Made by a program: the position numbers and the translations under genes. This document shows positions 1,707 through 29,846 of a stretch of DNA of 33,203 nucleotides, piece by piece (within the stretch, counting starts at the first letter, position 1; every line of letters starts with the position of its first letter). The DNA comes from a virus. The notes beneath the pieces are model-generated. The model was not told where the DNA came from and ran no database searches. It saw nothing but the letters and a program-made list of their open reading frames with translations. The DNA is taken from UHGV virus genome UHGV-0162190; one strand, given 5' to 3'.

Positions 1707-4154
1707 TTAACCGTCATGCATCATGCTGGCACGGGCGCGCGCACGTTTATCCCGCTCGTATTTTTCGAGCGCATCCTGTAACTGGCGGTCAAGCTGTGTC
1801 CCCGGCGCAGTACCGCCCGTCAGGTTGATGTGATATTCGTTTTTACTCTGGTCCACATAAGAGCGACCAGCCGGTGCCGTGACCGGCTGATAAGCCTGAT
1901 AGCCTGCATAAGAGCTGGTCGCCGGAATATAACCGCCGGTGCCATACGTGGCGGCATGAGTCCTTGCGGCGGTCTGGTCAAGTGTGTCTGACTCTTTGTT
2001 GATAACACCGAGTTTTTCCAGTACCCAGTCAATACCGCTGCGCAGTTTGTTGAACGCATTAAGCGGCAGCATCAACGCGTCAGCCAGTGCCTGCCCGAAC
2101 ATGACGCCCGTATCACGGCAACGGTTCAGGGTGTCCCGGGTGGCTTTGACCGGGGCAATCAGGTTTTTAAACCACTGCCACGCGGCCTGTAACTTTTCGC
2201 CCAGCCAGTCAAACACCGGCTTAAGTGGCGTGAACAGTTCCCCCACCGGCGCAAATGCCGCTTTCAGCCCTTCCACCACACCGCCAAAGAATGCGCTGAC
2301 AGGCTCCCAGTATTTACGGATAAGTAACGCCCCGGCGACAATGGCGGCCACCACGGCCACAACCGGCCAGCTAATCGCCCCGATGGCCGTCATAACAGCA
2401 CTGCCAACCGTCGTGAAGATTGCTCCCATTGCGCCTGCTGCCGCTATGATGGCATTGATGCCGGTGATAACCGGCCAGGCTACGAGGCCAATGGCACCGA
2501 TGACACCAATCAGCGCCAGTGCACCACCGACAATGATGCCGATGGTTGACGCCAGTGATTTGTTTTTCTGTATCCAGCCGTCGAGTTTTAACACATACTT
2601 TGTGGCCGTCTGCGTGAGCTTACGCAGTGCGCCTTCCTGCTGGTCAAACAGGTCAGTCCCCACCGCCTCATAAGCGGACTGAAACTCCTTAAAGTCACCG
2701 CCGAGGTTGTCCTGCATGATATTTACCAGCTCGGCGGTCTTCCCGTCTGAGGCTTTAAACGCAGCGGTCAGTTTGTCCAGCTTTCCGGTTGAGGCGGCAG
2801 TCATCAGCACGGCGGCGGCTGAGCTGGCCTCCTCCCCGAAAATAGTTTTCATGTATTCAGCCTGCTGGGCAGTACCGAGCCGGTTTTTCTCAAAACTGGC
2901 CTGCATTTCTTTCAGAATGGTAAATACTGGTCGGGTATTCCCTTTACTGTCTGAGGTTTTCACGCCAAGCTCTTTCAGTGCATCCCATGCTTTTCCCGTC
3001 GGTGCCTGCAGGCGGCTTAACACGGCACGGCTTCCCGTCCCCGCCATTGAACCGGTAATTTTTGCATCATGCAGCGCCCCGACCATTGCGGCGGTTTCTT
3101 CAATGCTGACACCAGCATTTTTTGCCACAGGTGCGGCATAGGTCAGCGCATCGCTCATGCCATCAAAATCGGCGGCGGTTTTGTTCATCGTCATGGAGAG
3201 AACATCCCCGATATGAGCGACCTTATCGTTTGAAAGCTGAAAGGCGGATTTCATCCCCATCAGCAGGGCGGCGTTTTCTTCCATCGTGCGACGGTTCGCC
3301 AGCGCCATATTCAGCGTGACCGGCGTTGCCGCCTGAATGGCATCAACATCCCCACCGGCTTTCGCAATAATAATCTGCGCACCGGCTGCATCATCTGCCG
3401 AGGCTGCGGTATTGTCGCCGAGCTGGCGCGCCTGCTTGCGTAGTGCAGCCATTTCGGCGGAGTCTTTTGCCACACCGAGCACAGCCTGCAATTCTGAGTT
3501 TTTCTGCGCAAACTCATAACCGGGCATCAGCAACTTAACTCCGGCCATCGTTCCCGCAGCAGCAATCCCCACACCGGCAGCGCCCACTGAGGCCATATTT
3601 CCGGCCAGTTCCTTTCCGGCCTGATAACGCTGTTTTACTGCATTAAGTTTTGCCTGTTGCGCACTGACACGCGCCAGCGCGTCACGCTGCCGGTTAAGCT
3701 GTGCGGTGGTTTCACTGATACGGTTTTTCAGTCCCTGCTCATCATGTGCAAGATTGCGGGTATTAATTCCCACAGCGGCCAGTTCCCGCTGCTGGCGTTT
3801 AACGGAATCTGTCAGGCGGTTATATTTCGCCTGTAAGTCCTCCGCCGCACGCTTTGCGGATTCCAGCACTTTCGCCTGAGCACGGGTCGGACGTTCGGTA
3901 TTTTTAAACTGCGTGGCAAGGGCTTCGGCCTCCTGCCGTGCCTTTTCAAGTGCATGACCAGTCACGGCGAGCTGTGCACTGGTCTTGCGGAATCCCTCAA
4001 TACGGGATGCCTGACCGTTCAGCTCGCGCAGTGATTTTTGTGTTTCCCGGATATCCCCCGACAGCGACTTACTCGCTGTGCGGATGGATTTAAACGGGCG
4101 GGATGCCTGGTCAACAGCCCTGAGCAATACCTGTAATTTTACATTGTTACTCAT
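1707..4154 (-). CDS. T: Tail tape measure protein gpT
   Basis: 815-aa ORF, Ala/Gly-rich with long predicted coiled-coil N-terminus and hydrophobic glycine-zipper-like segments; lies downstream of E/E' as in P2. Confidence 0.88.
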   Translation of the reverse strand: MSNNVKLQVLLRAVDQASRPFKSIRTASKSLSGDIRETQKSLRELNGQASRIEGFRKTSAQLAVTGHALEKARQEAEALATQFKNTERPTRAQAKVLESAKRAAEDLQAKYNRLTDSVKRQQRELAAVGINTRNLAHDEQGLKNRISETTAQLNRQRDALARVSAQQAKLNAVKQRYQAGKELAGNMASVGAAGVGIAAAGTMAGVKLLMPGYEFAQKNSELQAVLGVAKDSAEMAALRKQARQLGDNTAASADDAAGAQIIIAKAGGDVDAIQAATPVTLNMALANRRTMEENAALLMGMKSAFQLSNDKVAHIGDVLSMTMNKTAADFDGMSDALTYAAPVAKNAGVSIEETAAMVGALHDAKITGSMAGTGSRAVLSRLQAPTGKAWDALKELGVKTSDSKGNTRPVFTILKEMQASFEKNRLGTAQQAEYMKTIFGEEASSAAAVLMTAASTGKLDKLTAAFKASDGKTAELVNIMQDNLGGDFKEFQSAYEAVGTDLFDQQEGALRKLTQTATKYVLKLDGWIQKNKSLASTIGIIVGGALALIGVIGAIGLVAWPVITGINAIIAAAGAMGAIFTTVGSAVMTAIGAISWPVVAVVAAIVAGALLIRKYWEPVSAFFGGVVEGLKAAFAPVGELFTPLKPVFDWLGEKLQAAWQWFKNLIAPVKATRDTLNRCRDTGVMFGQALADALMLPLNAFNKLRSGIDWVLEKLGVINKESDTLDQTAARTHAATYGTGGYIPATSSYAGYQAYQPVTAPAGRSYVDQSKNEYHINLTGGTAPGTQLDRQLQDALEKYERDKRARARASMMHDG

Positions 4155-4574
4155 TCGTGTTTCCGCTTCGCCGGAGCGCCTTTTCGCGCCATGTGATGAG
4201 TTCGGTCAGGCTCATGGGATACAGTTCTGATGGCGGCCAGTGAAATATCACAGCCACATCCGCCATCAGGTCATCGACCGACAGATTTTTCGGAAACGTC
4301 ACTGCACCGAGTTCGGCGACAAAAAACCGACCACCTTACCGGCCAGCGCCACAAGGTCAGGCAGTTCCAGCGCGGCGACTTCCTGCTCGGTCAGCATCGG
4401 TGCCGTCATGCGCGGCAGCACCTTAATCAGTGCATCGACTTCGGAGTTTGCGACCGCAGCCAGACTGACACCGCGCAGCGTCCCGGCATTGGGTTTCATC
4501 AGCGTGACCTGTTCGATAACCTGCTCACCACGCTTGACCGGATTGTCCAGGGTAATCACATTTTCTTTGTTCAT
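4147..4574 (-). CDS. E+E': gpE+E' tail assembly chaperone made by programmed -1 ribosomal frameshift (about 142 aa)
   Basis: Slippery T TTT TTG at about 4320-4326 on the minus strand. The -1 frame stays open for about 57 codons and ends at a TAA that overlaps the T start (ATGAGTAA). Same architecture as P2 E/E'. Confidence 0.7.
4299..4574 (-). CDS. E: Tail assembly chaperone gpE (zero-frame product)
   Basis: 91-aa ORF between FII and T; the C-terminus is encoded by GGT TTT TTG, which contains the slippery heptamer. Confidence 0.8.
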   Translation of the reverse strand: MNKENVITLDNPVKRGEQVIEQVTLMKPNAGTLRGVSLAAVANSEVDALIKVLPRMTAPMLTEQEVAALELPDLVALAGKVVGFLSPNSVQ

Positions 4575-4630
4575 GGTTTTCTCACTTCTGAATCAGGGTT
4601 AACCGGTCAGCCATGCTGACCGGATGAAAA

Positions 4631-5149
4631 TCACAGGCCGATATTTCGGCGGTGTTGCTCCAGCCGGTCGACGCCGTTCACCTTCTCAATCATGTTGATG
4701 GTGTCGATTTCGACCAGCTCCTTGCCGTCCATCGTCAGCCGGAAATAGGTGCAGACCACGGAGATTTTCGACTCGGTGTCTTCTCCCTGTTTACCCTCGC
4801 CGGTGTCGATTTCTTTCTGACGTCCACGCATGACCACTTCGACGGCCACCGTTTCGCCGGTATCGTCACGCTGGTAAGAGCCTGCAAAACGAATCGGCAC
4901 AGCATCCACACCGGTTGCGGCGTAAAGCTCCCAGATAACCGAATCCGGGAAGCCACCGAGCGACCACTCCATTGACAGCGCATCGTCATCAAGGCCGAGG
5001 TCTACCGGTGCGCTGCCGTTCATCCCCGCACCGCGATAGTTTTCGAGCTTACGGGTCAGTTTTGGCAGCGTGAGGGACTTTGCAACGCCCTGATAGCTGT
5101 AGCCGTTCAGAAAGACGTTCATTAACTTGAGTTTGCGCGGCATTGCCAT
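4631..5149 (-). CDS. FII: Tail tube protein gpFII
   Basis: 172-aa ORF directly downstream of the sheath gene; P2 FII length and position. Confidence 0.85.
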   Translation of the reverse strand: MAMPRKLKLMNVFLNGYSYQGVAKSLTLPKLTRKLENYRGAGMNGSAPVDLGLDDDALSMEWSLGGFPDSVIWELYAATGVDAVPIRFAGSYQRDDTGETVAVEVVMRGRQKEIDTGEGKQGEDTESKISVVCTYFRLTMDGKELVEIDTINMIEKVNGVDRLEQHRRNIGL

Positions 5150-5161
5150 CGGTCAGGCTCC

Positions 5162-6352
5162 TTAATTGCTGTTAACCGAGGTGACCAGATTTGCCAGATA
5201 TTTATCGGTGATACGCTGGCGCAGGGTCAGGTTTTCGAGAGGAGGCACCGGGGTATAGTCGTAGTCGATATACAGTTTTCCGGCCTTGAGGGTTTCCGCA
5301 TCGTTGGATTCTTCGCTGAACCAGCAGGTCGCATCCACGATATAGCCGTTTGTTTTCAGCTCACGGAATTTGGCATTGATGCCGTCAACGATGTCGCGAA
5401 TCAGCGTTGCGGTGATGGGCTTGTCCACCGCCCACATGTGCGCCTCAGCCATCGTATCGGCCAGCACCTGCGCGGTGCGGGTGTAGTTTTCAAAGAGGAA
5501 CAGCGGGTCATCGGAGCAGGTACGGTTACCCCAGAAGCGGAAACCGTCGCGGCGAATCAGCGTAGTGACGCCTGACTCGTTAAGCAGGTCAGCATCGGTG
5601 CCGGACTCCTGCAAATCCCAGAAGACGGATGCGCTGATGCCGGTAACACCGTTCACCCCGACATTGGACAGCGTTTTATGCCAGCCCTGCTCCTGGTCGA
5701 TTTTAGCGCGCAGGCCCAGCGCACGGGCGGTGGCATACGTGGTGGCGGTGGTACTGGTGACCGTATCCCATGCGAGGAAATCCGGCCAGATGACCATCAG
5801 CTCACGCTGGCTGAAATTCTGGCGGTAGGCTTTCACCTCGGAAATGGTCTTACAGCCCCATGCGCTGATATATCCGAAAGCGCGCAGCTTCTGACAGACT
5901 GATGCCAGTGCAACAGCCACCTCTTTGGTGTCCAGTCCCGGCACGCCGAGAATACGCGGTTTAACACCGGTTACCGACTCCGCCGCCAGCAGGGCTTTCA
6001 GTCCGGTGTACTGACCGTTTTCGTCGGTGGTGCCGATGATATTGGAAACGGTCTGCGCAAGTTTCGTTTCTTCGTCTTCGCCGGTGCCGTCTTCCACACG
6101 TACAACAACGGTGACCGGTTTTGACTGGTCAGCGATGGCCTGCAACGACGCCGCCAGCGTGCCTTTTTTACCGGCCTTTGCAATTGCGCTCTGCACATTG
6201 GTAATCAGCACCGGTTTATTGAGGGGGAAGGTTTCCGCATCCGCATCGCTGGCCGTGCAGACCATGCCGACAATGGCCGTGGATACGGTGGAAATGACGC
6301 GGGTGCCGTCGTTAATCTCCAGCACCTGCACGCCATGATGATAGTCACTCAT
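5162..6352 (-). CDS. FI: Contractile tail sheath protein gpFI
   Basis: 396-aa ORF at the P2 FI position and length. Confidence 0.88.
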   Translation of the reverse strand: MSDYHHGVQVLEINDGTRVISTVSTAIVGMVCTASDADAETFPLNKPVLITNVQSAIAKAGKKGTLAASLQAIADQSKPVTVVVRVEDGTGEDEETKLAQTVSNIIGTTDENGQYTGLKALLAAESVTGVKPRILGVPGLDTKEVAVALASVCQKLRAFGYISAWGCKTISEVKAYRQNFSQRELMVIWPDFLAWDTVTSTTATTYATARALGLRAKIDQEQGWHKTLSNVGVNGVTGISASVFWDLQESGTDADLLNESGVTTLIRRDGFRFWGNRTCSDDPLFLFENYTRTAQVLADTMAEAHMWAVDKPITATLIRDIVDGINAKFRELKTNGYIVDATCWFSEESNDAETLKAGKLYIDYDYTPVPPLENLTLRQRITDKYLANLVTSVNSN

Positions 6353-6713
6353 CCGTTTAACTCCGTGGTTAATGGGTGCAACTATTTTCTGTTGTGCAGA
6401 GCATGAGACGCTATTTGACCTGGCTGGTCAGTGGATGAAACAACAGACAAAGAAAAGGCGGGTAATCCGCCAGCCTGTCATGATTTGCACTCACTCCTTT
6501 TCCAACTGACAATTTACATAGCCCAAACGCTATCAAATCTGACAGTCTGCTTTGAGCGATCAGCAGACGTTCGTACTTGAGTTGCCATAGATCTTGCTCA
6601 CAATGTCGTGTATCAATCAACTGGGAACAGGTCAATCGTTGCGAATGATATCGATATCTCCTGAAATTAGGGGTATTACTAGGTGGCTAAAGTAACTTGT
6701 TAATGGAGTAGGA

Positions 6714-7439
6714 ATGGCAAACTATGTATCAGGGAATATCATTTCTCAATCGTATGTTCATGTTAATCCTGAGTGGTTAAAAAATGCGACCCCTCAAGAT
6801 AAGAAACTAAGAATCAATGAGATTGAGAAGCAAATAACTGCCTTTGCGAAGAGCCGAATACCTTTTTTTATTGGAAGTGAGGTAGAGATAACAGTTGAGT
6901 TCTCTGAAGGCTCAATCATCGCGAAAATCACCGCTTACGGTAAGATCATCCCACTACTGGGGGGGCTAGTTATCGGATACCCACACTTTAGTGAGGGTGT
7001 TAGAACCATGGTGAAAGATGCACATGATCTAGGTTCGTATATTAACTCCGAGCTGTTATTTCAAACAGGCGCAAAACATAAATCTGAGCGCAAGTCAGTT
7101 GAGGCTCGCTTAGGAGTTTTTGGTATTATTGATCGCGTTAACGCCCAGATTAATGATCTAAGCTTGATCTCTCGGAGGAAGGAAAATTCGCCATCAATCA
7201 CATATAAAAAATTGTTACAGTTGCATGGGGATATCCTCTCATCCCTTGATAAGATTTCTGAAAATGCCCTAGATGACTCAGATGAAAAAATAGCCAAGGA
7301 TATGTGGATTGAAGGCGTATCCGGCATATCTGTGGGACGATCGCATTTCAAATTTAATCTTAAAGGTGATGATGATGTGTACAAAATGTTGGTTGCCGAA
7401 AAGCAGAGCATTCTTGATGACCTGAAAAAAAGGCAATAG
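6714..7439 (+). CDS. Hypothetical cargo protein (241 aa) at the Z/fun-equivalent position; function unknown
   Basis: AT-rich ORF on the strand opposite the late operon, between FI and G. GGAGTAGGA Shine-Dalgarno precedes the ATG. No transmembrane segment and no motif I can recognise. Followed by a hairpin. Confidence 0.6.
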   Translation: MANYVSGNIISQSYVHVNPEWLKNATPQDKKLRINEIEKQITAFAKSRIPFFIGSEVEITVEFSEGSIIAKITAYGKIIPLLGGLVIGYPHFSEGVRTMVKDAHDLGSYINSELLFQTGAKHKSERKSVEARLGVFGIIDRVNAQINDLSLISRRKENSPSITYKKLLQLHGDILSSLDKISENALDDSDEKIAKDMWIEGVSGISVGRSHFKFNLKGDDDVYKMLVAEKQSILDDLKKRQ

Positions 7440-7475
7440 GGCCTAATGCCTCCGTGGTGGGTATATAAAAATCAC

Positions 7476-7511
7476 GGGGAGCAGGGCTAGCTTCGTCTTG
7501 ACCTGCTCCCC
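7476..7511. terminator. Hairpin between the two convergent cargo genes (10-bp perfect stem GGGGAGCAGG / CCTGCTCCCC, 16-nt loop)
   Basis: Inverted repeat read directly from the sequence about 37 nt after the 6714-7439 stop. No clear U-tract, so it may be a factor-dependent terminator or a processing site. Confidence 0.4.
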
Positions 7512-7617
7512 ATAGACATAAATCCGACTGCTTTAGCGATTTCTTTTAATGTACTAGTAACCTTTAATGATTCTGTCAGAGTTGCCGTTATGGGCTGGGT
7601 TGTAGCAGTGACCCGTC

Positions 7618-8082
7618 TCAGAAGTGTTTGTTCTCATAGGCATCTTTCACTCCGGCGTGTTTCTCCGCACAGGCCCGTAGGATGGTGAGGGCGTGCCGGA
7701 TTAACTGCTCACTGCGTTCCGGTTCAAACCAATTACCATTGAATTTTCCGCCGTGAAAGAGATTGTTTCTTACTCGACAGACCAGCAGTAAAATTAGTTC
7801 AGCCCGGTGCCGGGAACTCGGTAGTTTTTCCGACCACATGATCCCCTTTTCACCGTAAATCTGTTTTTTAGGGGGATGCTCTTCGAAGTAATGAATCGCT
7901 TCATTAAGTTTAGAGGTAGACGGGTTTTCGATAACGTCACGCACCTGATCGGAATATCCATTCCAGTCAGCTTTTAAATGGCCTCCATTGATTAAAATCC
8001 CACATGCCTTAAGGCAATATTCATATCGTGAAAACTCAATAAAAAACTCACAGGCCAGTTGTTGTAACATAAAAAACTCCAT
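7618..8082 (-). CDS. Hypothetical cargo protein (154 aa) with an R-x4-H motif (RNNLFH, residues 105-110); possible HEPN-fold RNase
   Basis: AT-rich ORF convergent with the 241-aa gene. The motif sits in the C-terminal third of a small protein, as in HEPN domains. The fold assignment is inferred from the motif only. Confidence 0.5.
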   Translation of the reverse strand: MEFFMLQQLACEFFIEFSRYEYCLKACGILINGGHLKADWNGYSDQVRDVIENPSTSKLNEAIHYFEEHPPKKQIYGEKGIMWSEKLPSSRHRAELILLLVCRVRNNLFHGGKFNGNWFEPERSEQLIRHALTILRACAEKHAGVKDAYENKHF

Positions 8083-21311: not shown

Positions 21312-23084
21312 ATGACCATCACCACAGACACCACTCTTTTACACGACCCGCGTCGTCAGGCGGCGCTGCTGTACTGGCAGGGGTTTTCCGTGCCGCAGAT
21401 TGCCGCCATGTTGCAGATGAAACGCCCGACGGTGCAGAGCTGGAAACAGCGCGACGGCTGGGACAGCGTTGCCCCCATCAGCCGTGTCGAAATGAGCCTG
21501 GAAGCGCGGCTGACCCAGCTCATCATCAAACCGCAGAAAACCGGCGGTGACTTCAAGGAAATTGACCTGCTCGGACGCCAGATTGAACGACTGGCACGGG
21601 TAAACCGTTACAGTCAGACCGGCAACGAGGCAGACCTTAATCCGAACGTCGCTAACCGCAACAAAGGCGGGCGGCGCAAACCGAAAAAGAATTTTTTCAG
21701 TGACGAGGCCATCGAAAAGCTGGAGCAGATTTTCTTTGAGCAGTCTTTCGACTATCAGTTGCACTGGTATCGCGCCGGGCTTGAGCACCGCATCCGCGAT
21801 ATCCTGAAATCCCGCCAGATTGGTGCAACGTTTTATTTTTCCCGCGAGGCGCTACTGCGCGCCCTGAAAACCGGTCATAACCAGATTTTTCTGTCGGCCA
21901 GTAAAACGCAGGCGTATGTGTTCCGCGAATACATCATCGCCTTTGCCCGTCTGGTTGACGTTGACCTGACCGGTGACCCGATTGTCCTGGGCAATAACGG
22001 CGCAAAACTGATTTTTCTCGGCACCAACTCCAACACCGCACAGAGCCATAACGGCGACCTGTACGTCGACGAGATTTTCTGGATCCCGAATTTTCAGGTA
22101 CTGCGTAAGGTGGCATCAGGTATGGCCTCACAGAGTCACCTGCGCTCAACCTATTTCTCCACCCCGTCCACGCTGGCGCACGACGCCTACCCGTTCTGGT
22201 CGGGTGAACTGTTTAACCGGGGACGCGCCAGCGCCGCCGAACGCGTGGAAATCGACGTCAGTCATAACGCCCTTGCCGGTGGGCTTCTCTGTGCGGACGG
22301 CCAGTGGCGGCAGATTGTCACCATTGAGGACGCGCTGAAAGGCGGCTGCACGCTGTTCGACATTGAGCAGCTCAAACGCGAAAACAGCGCCGACGATTTT
22401 AAAAACCTGTTCATGTGTGAATTTGTTGACGACAAGGCGTCGGTGTTCCCGTTCGAGGAGCTGCAACGCTGCATGGTCGACACGCTGGAAGAATGGGAAG
22501 ACTATGCACCCTTTGCCGCCAATCCGTTCGGCTCCCGCCCGGTATGGATTGGTTACGACCCGTCACACCGTGGCGACAGCGCCGGATGCGTGGTGCTGGC
22601 ACCGCCGGTGGTGGCCGGTGGCAAATTCAGAATACTTGAGCGTCACCAGTGGAAAGGCATGGACTTTGCCACCCAGGCGGAATCCATCCGCAAACTCACC
22701 GAAAAATATAACGTCGAATACATCGGTATTGATGCCACCGGCCTCGGTGTCGGCGTGTTCCAGCTCGTGCGCTCGTTCTATCCCGCCGCGCGCGATATCC
22801 GCTACACACCGGAAATGAAAACCGCAATGGTGCTCAAGGCAAAAGACGTCATCCGCCGTGGCTGTCTGGAATATGACGTCAGCGCCACCGACATCACCAG
22901 CTCGTTTATGGCTATCCGCAAGACCATGACCAGCAGCGGACGCAGCGCCACCTATGAGGCCAGCCGCAGCGAGGAAGCCAGCCACGCCGACCTCGCCTGG
23001 GCGACCATGCACGCCCTGTTAAATGAGCCACTCACCGCCGGTATCAGCACCCCGCTGACATCCACCATTCTGGAGTTTTACTGA
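21312..23084 (+). CDS. P: Terminase large subunit (ATPase/nuclease) gpP
   Basis: ORF 21282-23084 trimmed to the first ATG (MTITTDTT...), which has a GAGGT Shine-Dalgarno, giving 590 aa as in P2 P. Confidence 0.9.
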   Translation: MTITTDTTLLHDPRRQAALLYWQGFSVPQIAAMLQMKRPTVQSWKQRDGWDSVAPISRVEMSLEARLTQLIIKPQKTGGDFKEIDLLGRQIERLARVNRYSQTGNEADLNPNVANRNKGGRRKPKKNFFSDEAIEKLEQIFFEQSFDYQLHWYRAGLEHRIRDILKSRQIGATFYFSREALLRALKTGHNQIFLSASKTQAYVFREYIIAFARLVDVDLTGDPIVLGNNGAKLIFLGTNSNTAQSHNGDLYVDEIFWIPNFQVLRKVASGMASQSHLRSTYFSTPSTLAHDAYPFWSGELFNRGRASAAERVEIDVSHNALAGGLLCADGQWRQIVTIEDALKGGCTLFDIEQLKRENSADDFKNLFMCEFVDDKASVFPFEELQRCMVDTLEEWEDYAPFAANPFGSRPVWIGYDPSHRGDSAGCVVLAPPVVAGGKFRILERHQWKGMDFATQAESIRKLTEKYNVEYIGIDATGLGVGVFQLVRSFYPAARDIRYTPEMKTAMVLKAKDVIRRGCLEYDVSATDITSSFMAIRKTMTSSGRSATYEASRSEEASHADLAWATMHALLNEPLTAGISTPLTSTILEFY

Positions 23085-24118
23085 TGAGCAAGAAAAAAGG
23101 GAAAACACCGCGACCTGCGGCAAAAAAAATGACTGCCAGCGCCCCGAAAATGGAGGCATTCACCTTTGGTGAGCCGGTGCCGGTACTCGACCGCCGTGAT
23201 ATTCTGGATTACGTCGAGTGCATCAGTAACGGCAGATGGTATGAGCCACCGGTCAGCTTTACCGGTCTGGCAAAAAGCCTGCGTGCTGCCGTGCATCACA
23301 GCTCACCGATTTACGTCAAACGTAATATTCTGGCTTCAACGTTTATCCCGCACCCGTGGCTTTCCCAGCAGGATTTCAGCCGCTTTGTGCTGGATTTTCT
23401 GGTGTTCGGTAATGCGTTTCTGGAAAAGCGCTACAGCACCACCGGTAAGGTCATCAGACTGGAAACCTCACCGGCAAAATATACCCGCCGTGGCGTGGAG
23501 GAGGATGTTTACTGGTGGGTGCCGTCCTTCAACGAGCCGACATCTTTCGCGCCCGGCTCCGTGTTTCACCTGCTGGAGCCGGATATCAATCAGGAGCTGT
23601 ACGGCCTGCCGGAATATCTCAGCGCCCTTAATTCTGCCTGGCTGAATGAGTCGGCCACGCTGTTCCGCCGCAAGTATTACGAAAACGGCGCTCATGCCGG
23701 ATACATCATGTACGTCACCGATGCCGTGCAGGATCGCAACGATATCGAAATGCTCCGCGAAAACATGGTGAAGTCGAAAGGCCGCAACAACTTTAAAAAT
23801 CTGTTTCTCTACGCCCCACAGGGAAAAGCCGACGGCATTAAAATTATCCCGCTCAGTGAAGTGGCAACGAAGGACGATTTTTTTAATATCAAAAAAGCCA
23901 GCGCCGCTGACCTGCTGGACGCGCACCGCATCCCCTTTCAGTTGATGGGCGGCAAGCCGGAGAACGTCGGGTCGCTGGGTGATATTGAGAAAGTGGCAAA
24001 GGTCTTTGTCCGCAATGAGCTTATCCCGCTACAGGACAGGATCCGCGAGATAAACGGCTGGCTCGGTCAGGAGGTCATCCGCTTTAAAAACTACTCACTG
24101 GACACTGACAACGGCTGA
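23084..24118 (+). CDS. Q: Portal protein gpQ
   Basis: 344-aa ORF; its start overlaps the P stop (TGATGA); last gene before cos. Confidence 0.9.
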   Translation: MSKKKGKTPRPAAKKMTASAPKMEAFTFGEPVPVLDRRDILDYVECISNGRWYEPPVSFTGLAKSLRAAVHHSSPIYVKRNILASTFIPHPWLSQQDFSRFVLDFLVFGNAFLEKRYSTTGKVIRLETSPAKYTRRGVEEDVYWWVPSFNEPTSFAPGSVFHLLEPDINQELYGLPEYLSALNSAWLNESATLFRRKYYENGAHAGYIMYVTDAVQDRNDIEMLRENMVKSKGRNNFKNLFLYAPQGKADGIKIIPLSEVATKDDFFNIKKASAADLLDAHRIPFQLMGGKPENVGSLGDIEKVAKVFVRNELIPLQDRIREINGWLGQEVIRFKNYSLDTDNG

Positions 24119-24123
24119 ACATC

Positions 24124-24145
24124 GCCGCCTGCGGGCGGCTTTTTT
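24124..24145 (+). terminator. Rho-independent terminator of the P-Q operon
   Basis: GCCGCC-TGCG-GGCGGC hairpin followed by a run of T residues, about 6 nt after the Q stop. Confidence 0.65.
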
Positions 24146-24286
24146 ACAACCCGCCATCACGCCCTCACACGCTCACCACCGCGCAAAACAGCCCGCAGAC
24201 ACACCGACGCCCAGGCAGGCCAAGTAAACGCCTTCACGACGCGCTCAGACGCTGAAAAAATAAAATCAGCACCACCGCCAGCGCGC

Positions 24287-24305
24287 AGTGCTTTCCCCGC
24301 CTCGC
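24287..24305. other. cos: cos cohesive-end site (P2-type 19-nt sequence)
   Basis: GTGCTTTCCCCGCCTCGCC is the exact reverse complement of the P2 cohesive end GGCGAGGCGGGGAAAGCAC as I recall it; it lies just downstream of Q, as expected. Confidence 0.8.
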
Positions 24306-24455
24306 CCGCCCGCTTCATGAAGCGGTTTGAATGCAGTTGTATACCGACGCAGACTTCCTGCCAGTTCTAGCTACTCATAACAAAAAAAAACATTACAGAT
24401 GAATGCAAAATCATGCAACTAATGAAGGCGTACAGGCTAGGTGAGAAAATAAATG

Positions 24456-25256
24456 CTATTTCATCAGTCCTATAAAAGCTGCTGTCATGCTACCCAATGC
24501 ACCAATAGCAGCAAATAACGTTGCCCAAAACATGCTTTTTTGGCTACGAATATTCTCATTATATCGTTGTTCTTCATTATTGAAGTGATTTAACGTATTA
24601 ATTGCTTTTCCAGTGGGCTTATAACCATCTCGAGTCTTTGAAATGTCCCCACTCTCTACAAGGGAATCCAGACATAAGCGAAGTTCTTTTATGAGTCGAG
24701 AATAATCATCATGGTAGATCCATAAACGTCCTGCCACATCATTCATAATTAGAGTCTCACTGAATGGTTTTTCCCCTTGCTGCTCTCGATAAATTCTGAC
24801 AATTGCAGCCAATACCGTCATTACATCGGTTATCTCCTGCTTGCGTTGTCGATACAAATACTTCTCACGACTTAGCTTTTTATTTTGACGATTCGCTATT
24901 CTTCTAAATCTAAGCACATTAAAAAAAGATAAGTCGTCCAATGAGTCAAACTTCAATTCATGCGCATGATAATAATAAATTCCAGAAAAGGAATTTGATG
25001 TAAGTCGTTCTGGTTTAAGAATTGTATCAATATTGAAAGTTTTATTCTGATGATTCCACTTCTTAACCTTTATAATTCCGTTTGAATAACTATCAAAAAG
25101 ATAGTCATTACCCTCGTCATCCTTAATGTAAACGGAATACATATCGTAATGAATGGCACTCTCATACATTAAACTAATTTTGCCATTTTCAGGAGTCTTC
25201 TTTGACTCAAAAACTTTTAGAAACTTTACAACATCAACTTTATTTTTATACCTCAT
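24456..25256 (-). CDS. Hypothetical C-terminally membrane-anchored protein (266 aa); candidate effector of the RT cassette or an independent defence gene
   Basis: AT-rich ORF with an AAGG Shine-Dalgarno. Soluble N-terminal domain of about 240 aa, then a single C-terminal hydrophobic helix (FWATLFAAIGALGSMTAAFIGL). Lies 165 nt downstream of the RT on the same strand. Confidence 0.6.
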   Translation of the reverse strand: MRYKNKVDVVKFLKVFESKKTPENGKISLMYESAIHYDMYSVYIKDDEGNDYLFDSYSNGIIKVKKWNHQNKTFNIDTILKPERLTSNSFSGIYYYHAHELKFDSLDDLSFFNVLRFRRIANRQNKKLSREKYLYRQRKQEITDVMTVLAAIVRIYREQQGEKPFSETLIMNDVAGRLWIYHDDYSRLIKELRLCLDSLVESGDISKTRDGYKPTGKAINTLNHFNNEEQRYNENIRSQKSMFWATLFAAIGALGSMTAAFIGLMK

Positions 25257-25324
25257 ACATTCAGCCTTGACTGTAAACCACCATATTAAATTATTGCACT
25301 AACGACTCGTACCACTTATTGTTC

Positions 25325-25367
25325 AACCCAGTCAGAATTGAAAGCAAACTTCTGCACTAACTGGGTT
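25325..25367 (-). other. Structured element between the RT gene and the downstream membrane-protein gene
   Basis: 8-bp outer stem (AACCCAGT / ACTGGGTT) enclosing a 5-bp inner stem (CAGAA / TTCTG). No U-tract. Read directly from the sequence. Confidence 0.35.
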
Positions 25368-25421
25368 ACCATCATAATATATCGATACTAATAAAATCCG
25401 ATATCATTATATTTTAGTGTA

Positions 25422-26372
25422 TTAAACCGATGTATTTGCTTTCAACGTCAATACTTTCGATCTGTAACGTTTTTCAATAACCCCCATTGAATATAAACGA
25501 CCAAATAATTTCTTTGCTGTTCTTGTATCTTTAGCTTGTTCTACATCTTTTATTATTTTCCAAAGCTCTATTTCTCTAGCCATAAGATAATGCTGTTCGT
25601 TCCTAACCTTTAAGCTATCCCCAAATACTATAACTCCTGTCACCAGTTTAGGCTTATCCCCAGCATATAATTTCGTTTTAGTTGGATGCATCACGTGTCC
25701 ATGCTTATTAATAATCTTACGAATCACGCTGCAAAACAATCGATTTACATTATCTCCAGAAAAAGTAAGATCATCGACATAAACTGTCATTTTCACACGA
25801 AACTTCTCACAAAGTTGATTCATTTCATCAAACATTCTGGAATTTGCAAAATATGCTAATGGCATACTAATCCGACTACCCGTTGGCAATCGTTCATGAC
25901 AGGTACATATATGAGATAAAATATCAGCCACATCTGGCGACATTTTCATTATTGAGAAAAAGAAAGAAAATATCATTTCTCTTGTTGTTGACGGAAAAAA
26001 AGATTTAATATCTGTAGTCATCAACTTCTGATGATTGAGATGTGCTTTAGCATTTGTTATGTTAGAGCAACTTTTTTTACCAGAGTGCAAATACTCTGGC
26101 ATAGCTATACGCAATAATAAACTCGCAATACGTGTATGCACTACATCTAATTTTTCTAAAGGCTTTTGTATTTTCCGTATTTTATTTTTTTTAGAAAGCT
26201 GTTCAAAAATAGAGTAATTACCCTCATCCCTCTTCAAAGCTGATAGATCATTGATACTAACGCAGAGCAAGTTAGCCAACTTTTTTTTACTTTTAAGTTT
26301 ATAAAGTGGCGAATCCGTAATAGGATAAGATTTATTTTTAGTTGAAACCTTCAGTTTAATCCTTTTTTTCAT
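25422..26372 (-). CDS. Reverse transcriptase, retron-type (316 aa)
   Basis: Motifs in order: K-rich finger motif (SKKNKIRKIQKP); NAKAH (retron NAxxH) followed by DIKSFFPS; LPTGSRISMPLAYFAN; catalytic YVDDLTFSG; HPTKTKLY; and KLVTGVIV (retron VTG motif). Small size, no maturase or endonuclease domain. ATG overlaps the upstream HTH gene. Confidence 0.88.
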   Translation of the reverse strand: MKKRIKLKVSTKNKSYPITDSPLYKLKSKKKLANLLCVSINDLSALKRDEGNYSIFEQLSKKNKIRKIQKPLEKLDVVHTRIASLLLRIAMPEYLHSGKKSCSNITNAKAHLNHQKLMTTDIKSFFPSTTREMIFSFFFSIMKMSPDVADILSHICTCHERLPTGSRISMPLAYFANSRMFDEMNQLCEKFRVKMTVYVDDLTFSGDNVNRLFCSVIRKIINKHGHVMHPTKTKLYAGDKPKLVTGVIVFGDSLKVRNEQHYLMAREIELWKIIKDVEQAKDTRTAKKLFGRLYSMGVIEKRYRSKVLTLKANTSV

Positions 26373-26658
26373 TTCTTTTACTTACCCACTCTAGTATATC
26401 CAGAACTTTCCCTGCCAGTTTTAAACGTAAACTTTTGGATAACCGTCCTTGTGTCCCTAATGATTCTGAAAAAAAGACTAAAGAGGATACTGGCATGTCG
26501 AAATGGGAAGCATAACGCTGTAAAATATCAATCGACGGCACCCATAGTCCGCTTTCAATCTCTACTATTCTGCTTTTTGGAATACCTAAAGATGATGATA
26601 AGTCAACTATTGATTCTTTATGGTATTGCCTTATTAAACGAAGGGCTTTATGCAACAT
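26356..26658 (-). CDS. XRE-family helix-turn-helix protein (about 100 aa), translationally coupled to the RT
   Basis: HTH signature ...ESIVDLSSSLGIPKSRIVEIESGLWVPSIDILQRYASHF. Start set at the second ATG, which has a GGAG Shine-Dalgarno (the first ATG is at 26670). Its 3' end overlaps the RT start. Confidence 0.75.
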   Translation of the reverse strand: MLHKALRLIRQYHKESIVDLSSSLGIPKSRIVEIESGLWVPSIDILQRYASHFDMPVSSLVFFSESLGTQGRLSKSLRLKLAGKVLDILEWVSKRNEKKD

Positions 26659-26694
26659 AGGCAACTCCATCTTGTTGAAACTAGGGAGGACGCA

Positions 26695-26850
26695 TTACTC
26701 ATCTCCCCCTTCAAAGAAGTCAACTGCGCGAGTGATCCAATAAAGTAGTCTAATAAGCCACTTAATTACACCCCAAGCGTTAGGAGTCTTCTTTTTCCGG
26801 TTTAACTTGTTTTGCGCCTGCTGTTCGTTGGTTACTTTATCATTTTTCAT
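26695..26850 (-). CDS. Possible small protein (51 aa, MKNDKVTNEQQ...) with a hydrophobic C-terminus, upstream of the HTH gene
   Basis: Internal ATG of ORF 26695-26988 preceded by GGAGCAGG. Basic stretch followed by WGVIKWLIRLLYWI. The N-terminal part of the listed 97-aa ORF overlaps structured non-coding-like sequence and is probably not translated. Confidence 0.35.
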   Translation of the reverse strand: MKNDKVTNEQQAQNKLNRKKKTPNAWGVIKWLIRLLYWITRAVDFFEGGDE

Positions 26851-27100
26851 GACCTGCTCCTTATGTCCACGGTGTGCAAACGATATGTCTGCTCCAACAC
26901 CATGGCTCGCCCTCATAAGGATGAGATTGAACAGCACCAGCTCCCTGCTCCACGAACCCTTTGTCGCCCAAAGGGTTCGAATACCCATACGCTATACCGC
27001 TTGAATCAGAGACTCCTGTCGCTGACAGAGGCGTTGCGCGGGGTAAATGTTAGAAAGCATTAGCTTTCCACGGGCAATAAATACCCAATTGATGGCGATT
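26851..27100 (-). ncRNA. Candidate retron non-coding RNA (msr-msd) or structured leader of the RT operon; boundaries approximate
   Basis: Non-coding stretch upstream of the RT operon on the same strand. Perfect 11-bp GC-rich hairpin (CGAACCCTTTG-5 nt-CAAAGGGTTCG, about 26953-26979) plus further short stems (CTGTC-GCT-GACAG about 27015-27027; GAAAGC-ATTA-GCTTTC about 27054-27069). I could not identify a1/a2 flanking repeats by eye. Confidence 0.3.
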
Positions 27101-27292
27101 TATCTCACTAACTAACCAATGATTGAATCATACCAAGTAAACCGTTGTATTTGATCTCTCCTTATATAATTTTTTGTTATTAATCAATATAAATAAATAA
27201 CAAAAAGAAATATAGCTAATTTTCATCCGTCTCATCACAATAAATATCAACAAATCAAGAATATCGTTTGATTATCTAGTCTTTCCAATTCA

Positions 27293-29581
27293 TTAAAATA
27301 AAAACAATGCTTCATCTTCAATTCCCGGCCAAACATCAGCAACCGGATACATGAATTTTTTCCCGTCATAATTTACGGTCGCGCCACGCGCCAGCGCCTC
27401 AAGCTCCCATCGCTGAGGGCTGATACCGTTCTGAGCAAGGTCAACGCGGATACGGGTAATTTGCATTCGTTCCGACCTGGTCAGCCTGGCTGATGGCGCT
27501 ATTTCATGCGGTTTTAACGGGCTTCCGTCTCTTTGCTGACGGTTTGGTGTTCTCAGTCCGTGTTTTAATGCACCCCTGAGCGCCCTCACGACCTCCGGGT
27601 CACTCCATTCGATGACACCGTCATCAACCAGATTAAGCACTGCTGCGGCGTGTTCAGAAGGCGTGGGAGCCGGTGACGAAGTATCACCACCGGTGAGCTT
27701 TCCACAGTTATTGACAGGACTCCGAGGCGCGGCGATGCCGCTTTTTAAAGTCAAAGGCTCAACGACCGGAACTTTCGGCACAATGCGCCAGTCCGTCGTT
27801 CTGGTGATATGAATATGACGCGCGCCGAGATGCGGCGCGTAAATGCCGACCACTCTCTCGACTTCTTCCTCGTACTCGTTAACTTCATCCGACGGACTAC
27901 GGGCAACCCTGACAGTCTGACAATCGCGCGGAACATTTGCCCCACCCTGCGCGCTGATATACAACGCAAAATCACCACTGTCTGCGGCAGCGCGTGCAGC
28001 CTCGACGCGTTCGTCAAACTCATCAGCAATGCTGACGCCGCGAGGCAATTTGCGTAGTTCACGGTAAGCCCCCATTGTCGGCAGGCCAACCGTTTTAAAT
28101 TGCGGAATGCGCCACGTTGATGCCCATGCGGTAACAGCCGCGGCAGTGTCTTTCAGCGGCCTGCCGGTATCGTTATCGAGCTGACCATCCAGTGCATAGC
28201 CATCGATGTTTTTTGAGATGTATTTCGCGATATACCCCGCAGCACCGCCCCGGTTAAGGTGTTTTGCCTGAAAACGGTTTCGCGCAGCTCCTCTTTCGTC
28301 GCCATCCTCTTTGAGCGCGTAGCGACGCATGATTTCAATAATCTGGTTACGCTGGCGTGGATTACAAAAAAGCATCATATGCCAGTGCGGCGTTCCGTCG
28401 TGGTGTGGTTCAACAACACGCAAACCGTAGGCCTGTAAATCATTATCCTTGAATGCCGTGCGCATCAGGCTCCAGATACGGCAGAGATAACGCTGCGCAT
28501 CCTTTGGATTAAATGCCTCATCGTTCCAGCCGTGATTTAGCTGGACGGTTTTACTTTCGCCTTTTCTGACCTGACGTGTCGGGTGATACTTTGACGGCGC
28601 GGTCAGCGTGATAAACATCCCCACATCACCCTCTGCGGCGGCGTAACGCTCAATACCGGCAATGGTGTTCATCAGCTCCATCCGGCGAATTTCAGGATTA
28701 GAAATACTGCCCATCACCTTACTGATAAGGTCGATGCGCTCGCCGGTTTCCCTGTTTTCAAGGTCACACGATTTAAGAAATTCCAGATTTGCCTGGCGGC
28801 GTGCACGCACATCACGAATGGCATGTTTACTGGCATAAGGAGAACGGTCTTTATTGACCTCCCCGACAGCAATCAGTAACGCCTCATGCCAGCGCATACG
28901 CTGGCCTTTAAGCTGATGAGTCCACCACTCATCGTTAAACAGGCGGGCAATGGCAGAATATGCCTGCCTCGTGGTCATCTGTCCTTTACGGTATTTTTTC
29001 CAGTAGAGCGGGGAAATATTGAAAGCACGTGCAGCGCCAGCAACATGACCATAGAGGTGAGCCTGCGCCTCATCCGTAAACAGCGATTCTTTTTCGCCAT
29101 GTGCATCAACCCAGGCATCGCAGAGTTCCTCATACATCATGAAAAGCTGCGATGAGATACGGGCAGCAAACTTTTTCAGCTCCTTGTCATTCATCCCCGG
29201 CAGGCGCGCATAGTGGTCACGCTCTGCCAGAAACAGCAACGACGCGTCGGTGTTCATTTCATGGCGCTGATTAACGCGCTCAATGCGCGGCCATAAACGA
29301 CGCTGAAAAGTGGATGTGAGGAAATAAAACCCGTGCACCGGGCTTTTATTGCGCCGGATGTAGTCATAGCGTGAAGTAAACAGCGAGCGCAAAAAGTAAG
29401 GCAGGCGATTAATCGTGGATAAAACACCTTGCACCTGACGCATCTCGTCACGTGTAAGGGGTCTTTCGCGCCCGACGGCCTCGCGTGGCGCGTTCCATGC
29501 ATAAGCACCGGTAAACGTCTCACCGGTGCCTGCGGCAAATGCTGACGGAGGGACAAAACGCCCGGAGGCTTTAACGGCCAT
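27293..29581 (-). CDS. A: Replication initiator gpA (rolling-circle nickase)
   Basis: ORF 27293-29623 trimmed to the ATG at MAVKASGRF, giving about 762 aa. HUH-type motif (EPHHDGTPHWHMMLF) and catalytic tyrosine region (AGYIAKYISK). Confidence 0.88.
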   Translation of the reverse strand: MAVKASGRFVPPSAFAAGTGETFTGAYAWNAPREAVGRERPLTRDEMRQVQGVLSTINRLPYFLRSLFTSRYDYIRRNKSPVHGFYFLTSTFQRRLWPRIERVNQRHEMNTDASLLFLAERDHYARLPGMNDKELKKFAARISSQLFMMYEELCDAWVDAHGEKESLFTDEAQAHLYGHVAGAARAFNISPLYWKKYRKGQMTTRQAYSAIARLFNDEWWTHQLKGQRMRWHEALLIAVGEVNKDRSPYASKHAIRDVRARRQANLEFLKSCDLENRETGERIDLISKVMGSISNPEIRRMELMNTIAGIERYAAAEGDVGMFITLTAPSKYHPTRQVRKGESKTVQLNHGWNDEAFNPKDAQRYLCRIWSLMRTAFKDNDLQAYGLRVVEPHHDGTPHWHMMLFCNPRQRNQIIEIMRRYALKEDGDERGAARNRFQAKHLNRGGAAGYIAKYISKNIDGYALDGQLDNDTGRPLKDTAAAVTAWASTWRIPQFKTVGLPTMGAYRELRKLPRGVSIADEFDERVEAARAAADSGDFALYISAQGGANVPRDCQTVRVARSPSDEVNEYEEEVERVVGIYAPHLGARHIHITRTTDWRIVPKVPVVEPLTLKSGIAAPRSPVNNCGKLTGGDTSSPAPTPSEHAAAVLNLVDDGVIEWSDPEVVRALRGALKHGLRTPNRQQRDGSPLKPHEIAPSARLTRSERMQITRIRVDLAQNGISPQRWELEALARGATVNYDGKKFMYPVADVWPGIEDEALFLF

Positions 29582-29846
29582 ATGAGCCAAAAGCCTCTGA
29601 ACAACGCCTGCTGAGTTGCTCAACCTGCGCGTTTAAATCAGCAAAAGACTTTGCGCTTCCGGTCAGAATATCGTGATGCATCAGGCCGGAAACGAGCTGG
29701 CTTAATTTCGGGTAATAACCAACCACTGCCAGCCATTCCTGACCGGCGTTTTTACCGCTTTCCGCTCTCTTTTTCTCGTGGAGAATAAACTGAAAGCTGT
29801 CACTGGTAACGACATAACGTTCGCCAATTTCAATACGAATACTCAT
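29571..29846 (-). CDS. Small early protein (91 aa), P2 orf83-equivalent position
   Basis: ORF immediately upstream of A in the early operon. Confidence 0.55.
   Translation of the reverse strand: MSIRIEIGERYVVTSDSFQFILHEKKRAESGKNAGQEWLAVVGYYPKLSQLVSGLMHHDILTGSAKSFADLNAQVEQLSRRCSEAFGSYGR

Follow-up and report, generated by a model that had tools for sequence, protein, structure and literature searches.

The gene p266, which lies on the minus strand of a P2-like prophage between a retron reverse transcriptase (RT) gene and the cos site, encodes a real protein but not the effector of the neighbouring retron; the gene belongs to the cargo of the P2-prophage hotspot and is self-contained and uncharacterised. 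The window, that is, the whole stretch of DNA analysed here, comprises 33,203 nucleotides. Our preferred reading is that p266 is a self-contained hotspot cassette, independent of the retron and likely to act as a single-protein exclusion or abortive-infection factor (probability about 0.55), the independence being the core of the claim. The locus contains the following features:

24288..24306, minus strand: P2-type cos cohesive-end 19-mer (one exact match, 0 expected by chance)
24456..25256, minus strand: p266, an ORF of 266 aa, tail-anchored (phrog_7611; RefSeq WP_023281095 'hypothetical protein')
25265..25268, minus strand: AAGG ribosome-binding site of p266, 8 nt before the ATG
25422..26372, minus strand: type VI retron reverse transcriptase, 316 aa (PADLOC RT_VI, 2.5e-106; Pfam RVT_1)
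26356..26670, minus strand: type VI retron HTH protein, 104 aa (PADLOC HTH_VI, 2.5e-31)
26695..26850, minus strand: type VI retron SP, 51 aa (RefSeq CDS WP_016233353; phrog_15287 at 1.1e-34)
26851..27200, minus strand: structured non-coding region upstream of SP, candidate msr-msd (fold z-score -5.6)
27293-29623, minus strand: replication gene A (gpA)

In a PHROG profile search, p266 matched phrog_7611 at 2.5e-147. The protein was found full-length in 29 close clusters, and at E<=1e-3 its family comprised 678 representative clusters, with lengths of 250-300 aa in nearly every case; the full-length conservation across clusters therefore identifies a real protein family. The GC content of the gene was 0.35, compared with 0.53 in the phage backbone. 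What the sequence-only reading had described was borne out: a 266-aa ORF on the minus strand with a hydrophobic C-terminal helix (residues 243-265), an AAGG site 8 nt from the ATG, a spacer of 165 nt between RT and p266 that holds a hairpin (in fact two), and a position between RT and cos, with cos 150 nt past the p266 stop. The soluble N-terminal part, in which it had recognised no motif, indeed gave no match in Pfam, NCBIfam or PADLOC, and these three libraries yielded no significant family for p266 or for 74 of its remote relatives. A tblastn search of GenBank phages returned no match to p266, a sequence profile search of the PDB returned only a designed transmembrane peptide (E 0.25), a viral-fold search had no match that would give p266 a function, and a literature search by the p266 accessions and the PHROG id found no papers.

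The window is a P2-like prophage, and the region is 100% identical to E. coli 65COLEC. To the left of the hotspot insert come the genes for capsid, scaffold, terminase and portal, the last of them at 23084-24118, and the insert between gene A and portal is of low GC (0.33-0.40 versus 0.53 in the backbone). The gene p266 is thereby located in the gpA-Q hotspot, between gpA and cos/portal Q, and its presence is variable among related prophages. The cos-proximal gpA-Q hotspot of P2-like prophages holds anti-phage systems (Rousset et al. 2022, PMC9122126), and the p266 family has already been catalogued as cargo of this hotspot. System #68 in Table S5B of that study is a P0022-like homologue of p266 (no Pfam, one protein, '1 TM', 62 occurrences), and system #12 is a 243-aa protein ('2 TM', 210 occurrences); each was curated as a single-gene system and both are missing from the table of cloned and tested systems (PMC9122126). 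System #68 shares with p266 the family (about 56% identity), the position between gpA and cos/Q and the single transmembrane helix, but it adjoins the 2-TM gene where p266 of the window adjoins a retron, and it is a catalogue line only, without function, structure or wider distribution. The chief gain for p266 is a corrected annotation and an inexpensive candidate for defence screening. The lysogenic-conversion exclusion genes tin and old of P2 occupy the same cos-proximal hotspot on the strand opposite gene A, whereas p266 shares the strand of gene A. Homology of p266 to P2 Tin was rejected (BLASTP E 26, hhalign probability 0.1%).

The genes directly upstream of p266 form a type VI retron. 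In published descriptions the type VI operon consists of the ncRNA (msr-msd), SP, HTH and RT, with no further gene, and the toxic effector is SP, encoded upstream of HTH (Zhang 2025; Garcia-Rodriguez 2026). SP is encoded within a structured 'hybrid RNA' (Zhang et al. 2025), and in Retron-Sen3 the SP toxin is neutralised by HTH (Garcia-Rodriguez et al. 2026). All four parts are present in the window, and the retron is therefore complete without p266; its effector slot is already taken by SP, a 51-aa protein with a hydrophobic C-terminal half. The ncRNA region is conserved between the window and the retron of Acerihabitans (74%-identical RT), with stems kept despite base changes. Positions 26671-27200 on the minus strand, SP gene included, are a candidate for the hybrid RNA of the type VI retron, made up of msr-msd plus SP; an Rfam search of 23900-27400 gave nothing at E<=1, including no model for this candidate. 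Retron-Vpa2, Retron-Eco12 and Retron-Sen3 carry genes like those directly upstream of p266 (ncRNA, SP, HTH, RT) and use the hydrophobic-core SP as effector, whereas p266 is outside their defined components and is absent from most related retrons. The accessory proteins of type II and III retrons (Mestre 2020) set a precedent in which a retron acts together with winged-helix proteins that may be membrane-associated; unlike p266, they come with NDT or PRTase partners. The PADLOC retron accessory models, WH_III-A and NDT_II-A among them, did not match p266, and WH_III-A matched one of the 74 remote relatives weakly (E 0.0038).

The spacer between RT and p266, in which a 'nested hairpin' had been seen, contains three elements:

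25296..25324, minus strand: conserved box GTTGAACAAYRAG..CGAG.CGTTAGT, just 3' of the leader hairpin, nearly invariant in 13 distinct leaders
25325..25367, minus strand: conserved leader hairpin (the earlier 'nested hairpin'), belonging to the p266 cassette and not to the retron
25375..25412, minus strand: distal AT-rich hairpin right after the RT stop, found only in the window's lineage

The proximal ~100 nt of the spacer share 73-75% with the intergenic region between the 243-aa gene and p266 in other phages, and the retron relatives have no shared sequence past the RT stop. The 13 distinct leaders, with the 243-aa gene, DinI or RT upstream, aligned to a hairpin of ~19 bp followed by the box. 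When covariation in the hairpin was assessed by alignment, shuffles (n=500) and RNAalifold, 91% of the cells were paired and 9 of the 16 pairs had changed on both sides; none of the 500 shuffles reached the observed covariation, and slid registers were all far worse. G-U pairs are frequent on the p266 strand, which speaks for a structure formed by the sense RNA. The spacer of the window as a whole was no more stable than its shuffles (z -0.9), and its copy of the hairpin is degenerate, which explains the 'nested' look. Judged from these alignments, the hairpin and the box travel with p266 whatever gene stands upstream. The portable leader (hairpin plus ~30-nt box, 25296-25367 in the window) was also observed at loci L003, L006, L007, L009, L024, L025, L030, L033 and L034. 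It is missing in the sub-lineages in which p266 directly follows gene A and is therefore not universal in the family. For the box, a weak promoter (TTGAAC-17-GTTAGT) and a leader element are both possible readings; a consensus promoter scan did not call it. Two other assignments of the hairpin, as a terminator and as a retron ncRNA, were rejected: it has no U-tract, retron-free loci have the same hairpin, and the complete spacer does not fold better than its shuffles. A likeness by eye between its 3' flank GTTGAAC and the integron attC R' motif GTTRRRY was judged probably coincidental.

Structure prediction divided the p266 protein into four parts, all encoded on the minus strand:

24927..25256, minus strand: N-terminal domain, residues 1-110, a helix plus a six-stranded small beta-barrel or meander
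24831..24926, minus strand: long, very basic helix, residues 111-142 (11 K+R versus 2 D+E, pI 11.6)
24612..24830, minus strand: winged-helix domain, residues 143-215, acidic (pI 5.2)
24462..24611, minus strand: juxtamembrane helix (residues 216-242) and C-terminal transmembrane segment (residues 243-265)

The full AlphaFold2 model had a mean pLDDT of 82.5, and the N-terminal domain modelled alone reached a pLDDT of 92.8 and a pTM of 0.83; a fold search with this domain found no confident structural relative. In the basic helix, the close family shows no variation at N125, S129, R130, K132 and R136. The remote homology search and structure prediction that the sequence-only reading had proposed gave a generic winged helix and no family of known function: the fold searches returned only a generic winged helix, of kleisin/Cdc6-like type, and because the domain in p266 is acidic, DNA binding is not implied. 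Residues 243-265 are the sole strongly hydrophobic stretch of the protein and are followed by a single lysine; in the model, residues 216-265 form one helix. Over 74 diverse relatives, conservation in the juxtamembrane and membrane region was seen at an EERRH-like motif, Q239, T246 and Q/S256-A257, with p266 of the window having S256. The conservation of such specific residues suggests that the transmembrane helix does more than anchor the protein and may, for example, oligomerise.

Relatives of p266 are not restricted to prophages. Remote ones (23-44% identity) were found on plasmids, some of them conjugative, of Klebsiella, Enterobacter, Salmonella, Yersinia, Shewanella and Agrobacterium, where they are solitary genes in accessory regions with no conserved partner gene. 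Their neighbours included a restriction endonuclease together with a Shedu nuclease, HEPN and DUF2971 genes, toxin-antitoxin pairs, and partition or transfer genes. A sizeable, completely unannotated family of tail-anchored proteins recurs in cargo slots of prophages and plasmids beside defence genes. The genes standing upstream of p266 family members were tallied at 61 loci, which are not independent samples. A 243-aa protein with two N-terminal transmembrane helices was encoded upstream in 33 of them; gene A lay within ~75-310 nt, the hotspot being otherwise empty, in seven, and ~1 kb away in one (L024); a DinI-like gene was found in six and a type VI RT in seven. The remaining seven comprised six plasmid loci and one prophage locus where the family member follows an AbiJ_NTD4 gene. 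From these data p266 is very probably modular and independent of the retron. The separate single-gene defence cargo that the sequence-only reading had offered as its other option thus stood as far as modularity is concerned (p266 alone after gpA or DinI, beside unrelated neighbours, and on plasmids), while the defence part of that proposal is drawn from location.

The proposal that p266 is the effector of the RT system was not supported. Such a coupling would make p266 an additional effector or accessory protein of the type VI retron, co-transcribed with RT and activated by products such as msDNA. It is suggested by the position of p266 directly downstream of RT on the same strand and by a scan of the window that found no terminator between the two genes, so that co-transcription with the retron is possible in the window's lineage; winged-helix or single-TM accessory proteins are also used by some retron types (Mestre 2020). 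The retron, however, already has its SP effector in an operon published as ncRNA-SP-HTH-RT only, p266 has no match among the PADLOC retron accessory models, and the leader between the two genes is part of the p266 cassette. A related RT-HTH pair was present in 99 and p266 in 16 of 5426 complete E. coli genomes; only 10 of the 99 had both, and these ten are all >=98% identical and therefore represent one lineage. In strain ECONIH5, whose retron is 81% identical, unrelated small genes on the opposite strand come after RT, and most members of the p266 family have no RT nearby. Six of the seven RT-upstream loci belong to the window's own >=98% lineage. The seventh, L015, is a non-P2 locus of Acerihabitans arboris amid type IV secretion genes, where a p266 homologue lies 461 nt downstream of the RT of a second type VI retron (74% RT identity). 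This recurrence speaks for a coupling, but the homologue is only 37% identical to p266 of the window, which itself shares 56-72% identity with P2 copies that have no retron. The closest relatives of the L015 homologue are also retron-free; one follows an AbiJ_NTD4 gene, and others have the gpA-Q hotspot to themselves. The two cases of retron adjacency are therefore separate, phylogenetically unrelated juxtapositions and not an inherited operon. One recurrence elsewhere and the lack of a predicted terminator between RT and p266 leave a small probability to retron coupling, which is highly unlikely; cooperation of p266 with the adjacent retron as a second membrane-acting output is even slightly less probable. 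Because type VI retrons already have the effector SP, p266 should not be scored or engineered as a retron part, and a tempting misassignment is corrected.

Two other explanations are real alternatives to a defence cassette. The frequent upstream neighbour raises the idea that p266 and the 243-aa, 2-TM protein together make up a two-gene membrane module, and that in the window p266 was left behind when the retron replaced its partner. In 32 of the 33 loci with the 243-aa gene it is directly upstream at a gap of 104-147 nt, and the adjacency extends across Enterobacter, Klebsiella, Cronobacter and E. coli; a disrupted copy at L049 has 467 nt from the surviving fragment of the 243-aa gene to the p266 homologue. 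Yet p266 occurs without this gene in at least 20 loci, in some as the sole hotspot occupant, the window shows no trace of it, and Rousset et al. curated the 2-TM and 1-TM proteins as separate systems. The unequal counts (210 versus 62) and the loci at which p266 stands alone speak against obligate pairing, and we consider such a module improbable, with facultative pairing as its viable form. A non-defence function, in which p266 serves the element itself, for example as a regulator or scaffold tethered to the membrane, by countering defence or in an accessory early-lytic role, is a stronger competitor, though still on the unlikely side. The gene is on the strand of gene A and in some phages starts ~28-75 nt after it, so that it could be expressed in the early lytic operon and not in the lysogen; plasmid copies lie near partition and transfer genes, acidic kleisin/Cdc6-like winged helices often bind proteins, and the PADLOC defence library has no match. 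Against a service to the element stand the sporadic and dispensable occurrence of p266 (16 of 5426 complete E. coli genomes), its low GC, its constant placement in variable cargo positions, and neighbours that are frequently defence or toxin-antitoxin genes.

The exclusion or abortive-infection reading is favoured because p266 is mobile, single-gene and tail-anchored and sits in cargo slots enriched for anti-phage genes. A defence role, which we infer from this location, is tentative, its chances lying somewhat under one half. On the favoured reading the cassette would consist of the single gene and, in part of the family, its own conserved leader. The C-terminal helix would anchor p266 in the inner membrane with the small beta-barrel, the basic helix and the acidic winged helix exposed to the cytoplasm, where they might detect a protein or nucleic acid of the phage at the membrane. 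The polar-studded transmembrane helices could then associate, so that the membrane would be perturbed or DNA entry blocked. It is conceivable, at slightly longer odds than the defence role itself, that the family represents a widespread, unrecognised class of single-protein immune or exclusion factors on P2-like prophages and conjugative plasmids; if it does, its members would act on the cytoplasmic side of the inner membrane and part of the family would be under leader control, both points being comparably tentative. AbiP of Lactococcus and PdpSau of S. aureus prophages provide the nearest functional analogy; each is likewise encoded by one gene of a mobile element and has a single membrane helix (PMC10127798) and a cytoplasmic body that combines a small beta-rich (OB-like) domain with positive charge. 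Their membrane helix is N-terminal and their cytoplasmic domain is a nucleic-acid-binding OB-fold, an arrangement not seen in p266; topology and domains differ, and no homology was found. At ~0.8 kb, or ~0.9 kb with the leader where present, p266 is small and would be cheap to screen for anti-phage or exclusion activity.

Several further features were observed at the surveyed loci. The 243-aa protein, the commonest upstream neighbour of p266, has a conserved C-terminal domain behind its two N-terminal transmembrane helices, and Pfam, NCBIfam and PADLOC gave no significant family for it. Its gene, absent from the window, is found at:

L003, 5138-5869
L011, 2823-3554
L009, 4151-4882

At L015, positions 4002-7781 contain the SP-HTH-RT type VI retron, the distant p266 homologue and a convergent DUF2971 gene among virB-like genes; the p266 relative of a Yersinia plasmid (L054) is likewise followed by a DUF2971 gene. 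At L059 (408-2150) the AbiJ_NTD4 gene ends 28 nt before the p266 relative, near the tail genes gpD and gpU, a cargo site of a P2-like phage that differs from the gpA-Q hotspot. A 48-aa 'vacuolating cytotoxin domain-containing protein' annotated by RefSeq at 24172-24318 on the minus strand (L001, 3873-4019) overlaps the cos 19-mer and looks spurious. In 65COLEC a gene of the phosphoadenosine-phosphosulfate reductase family lies just upstream of gene A (L001, 9285-10292); the window has only short ORFs in the corresponding region, and the two elements may differ there.
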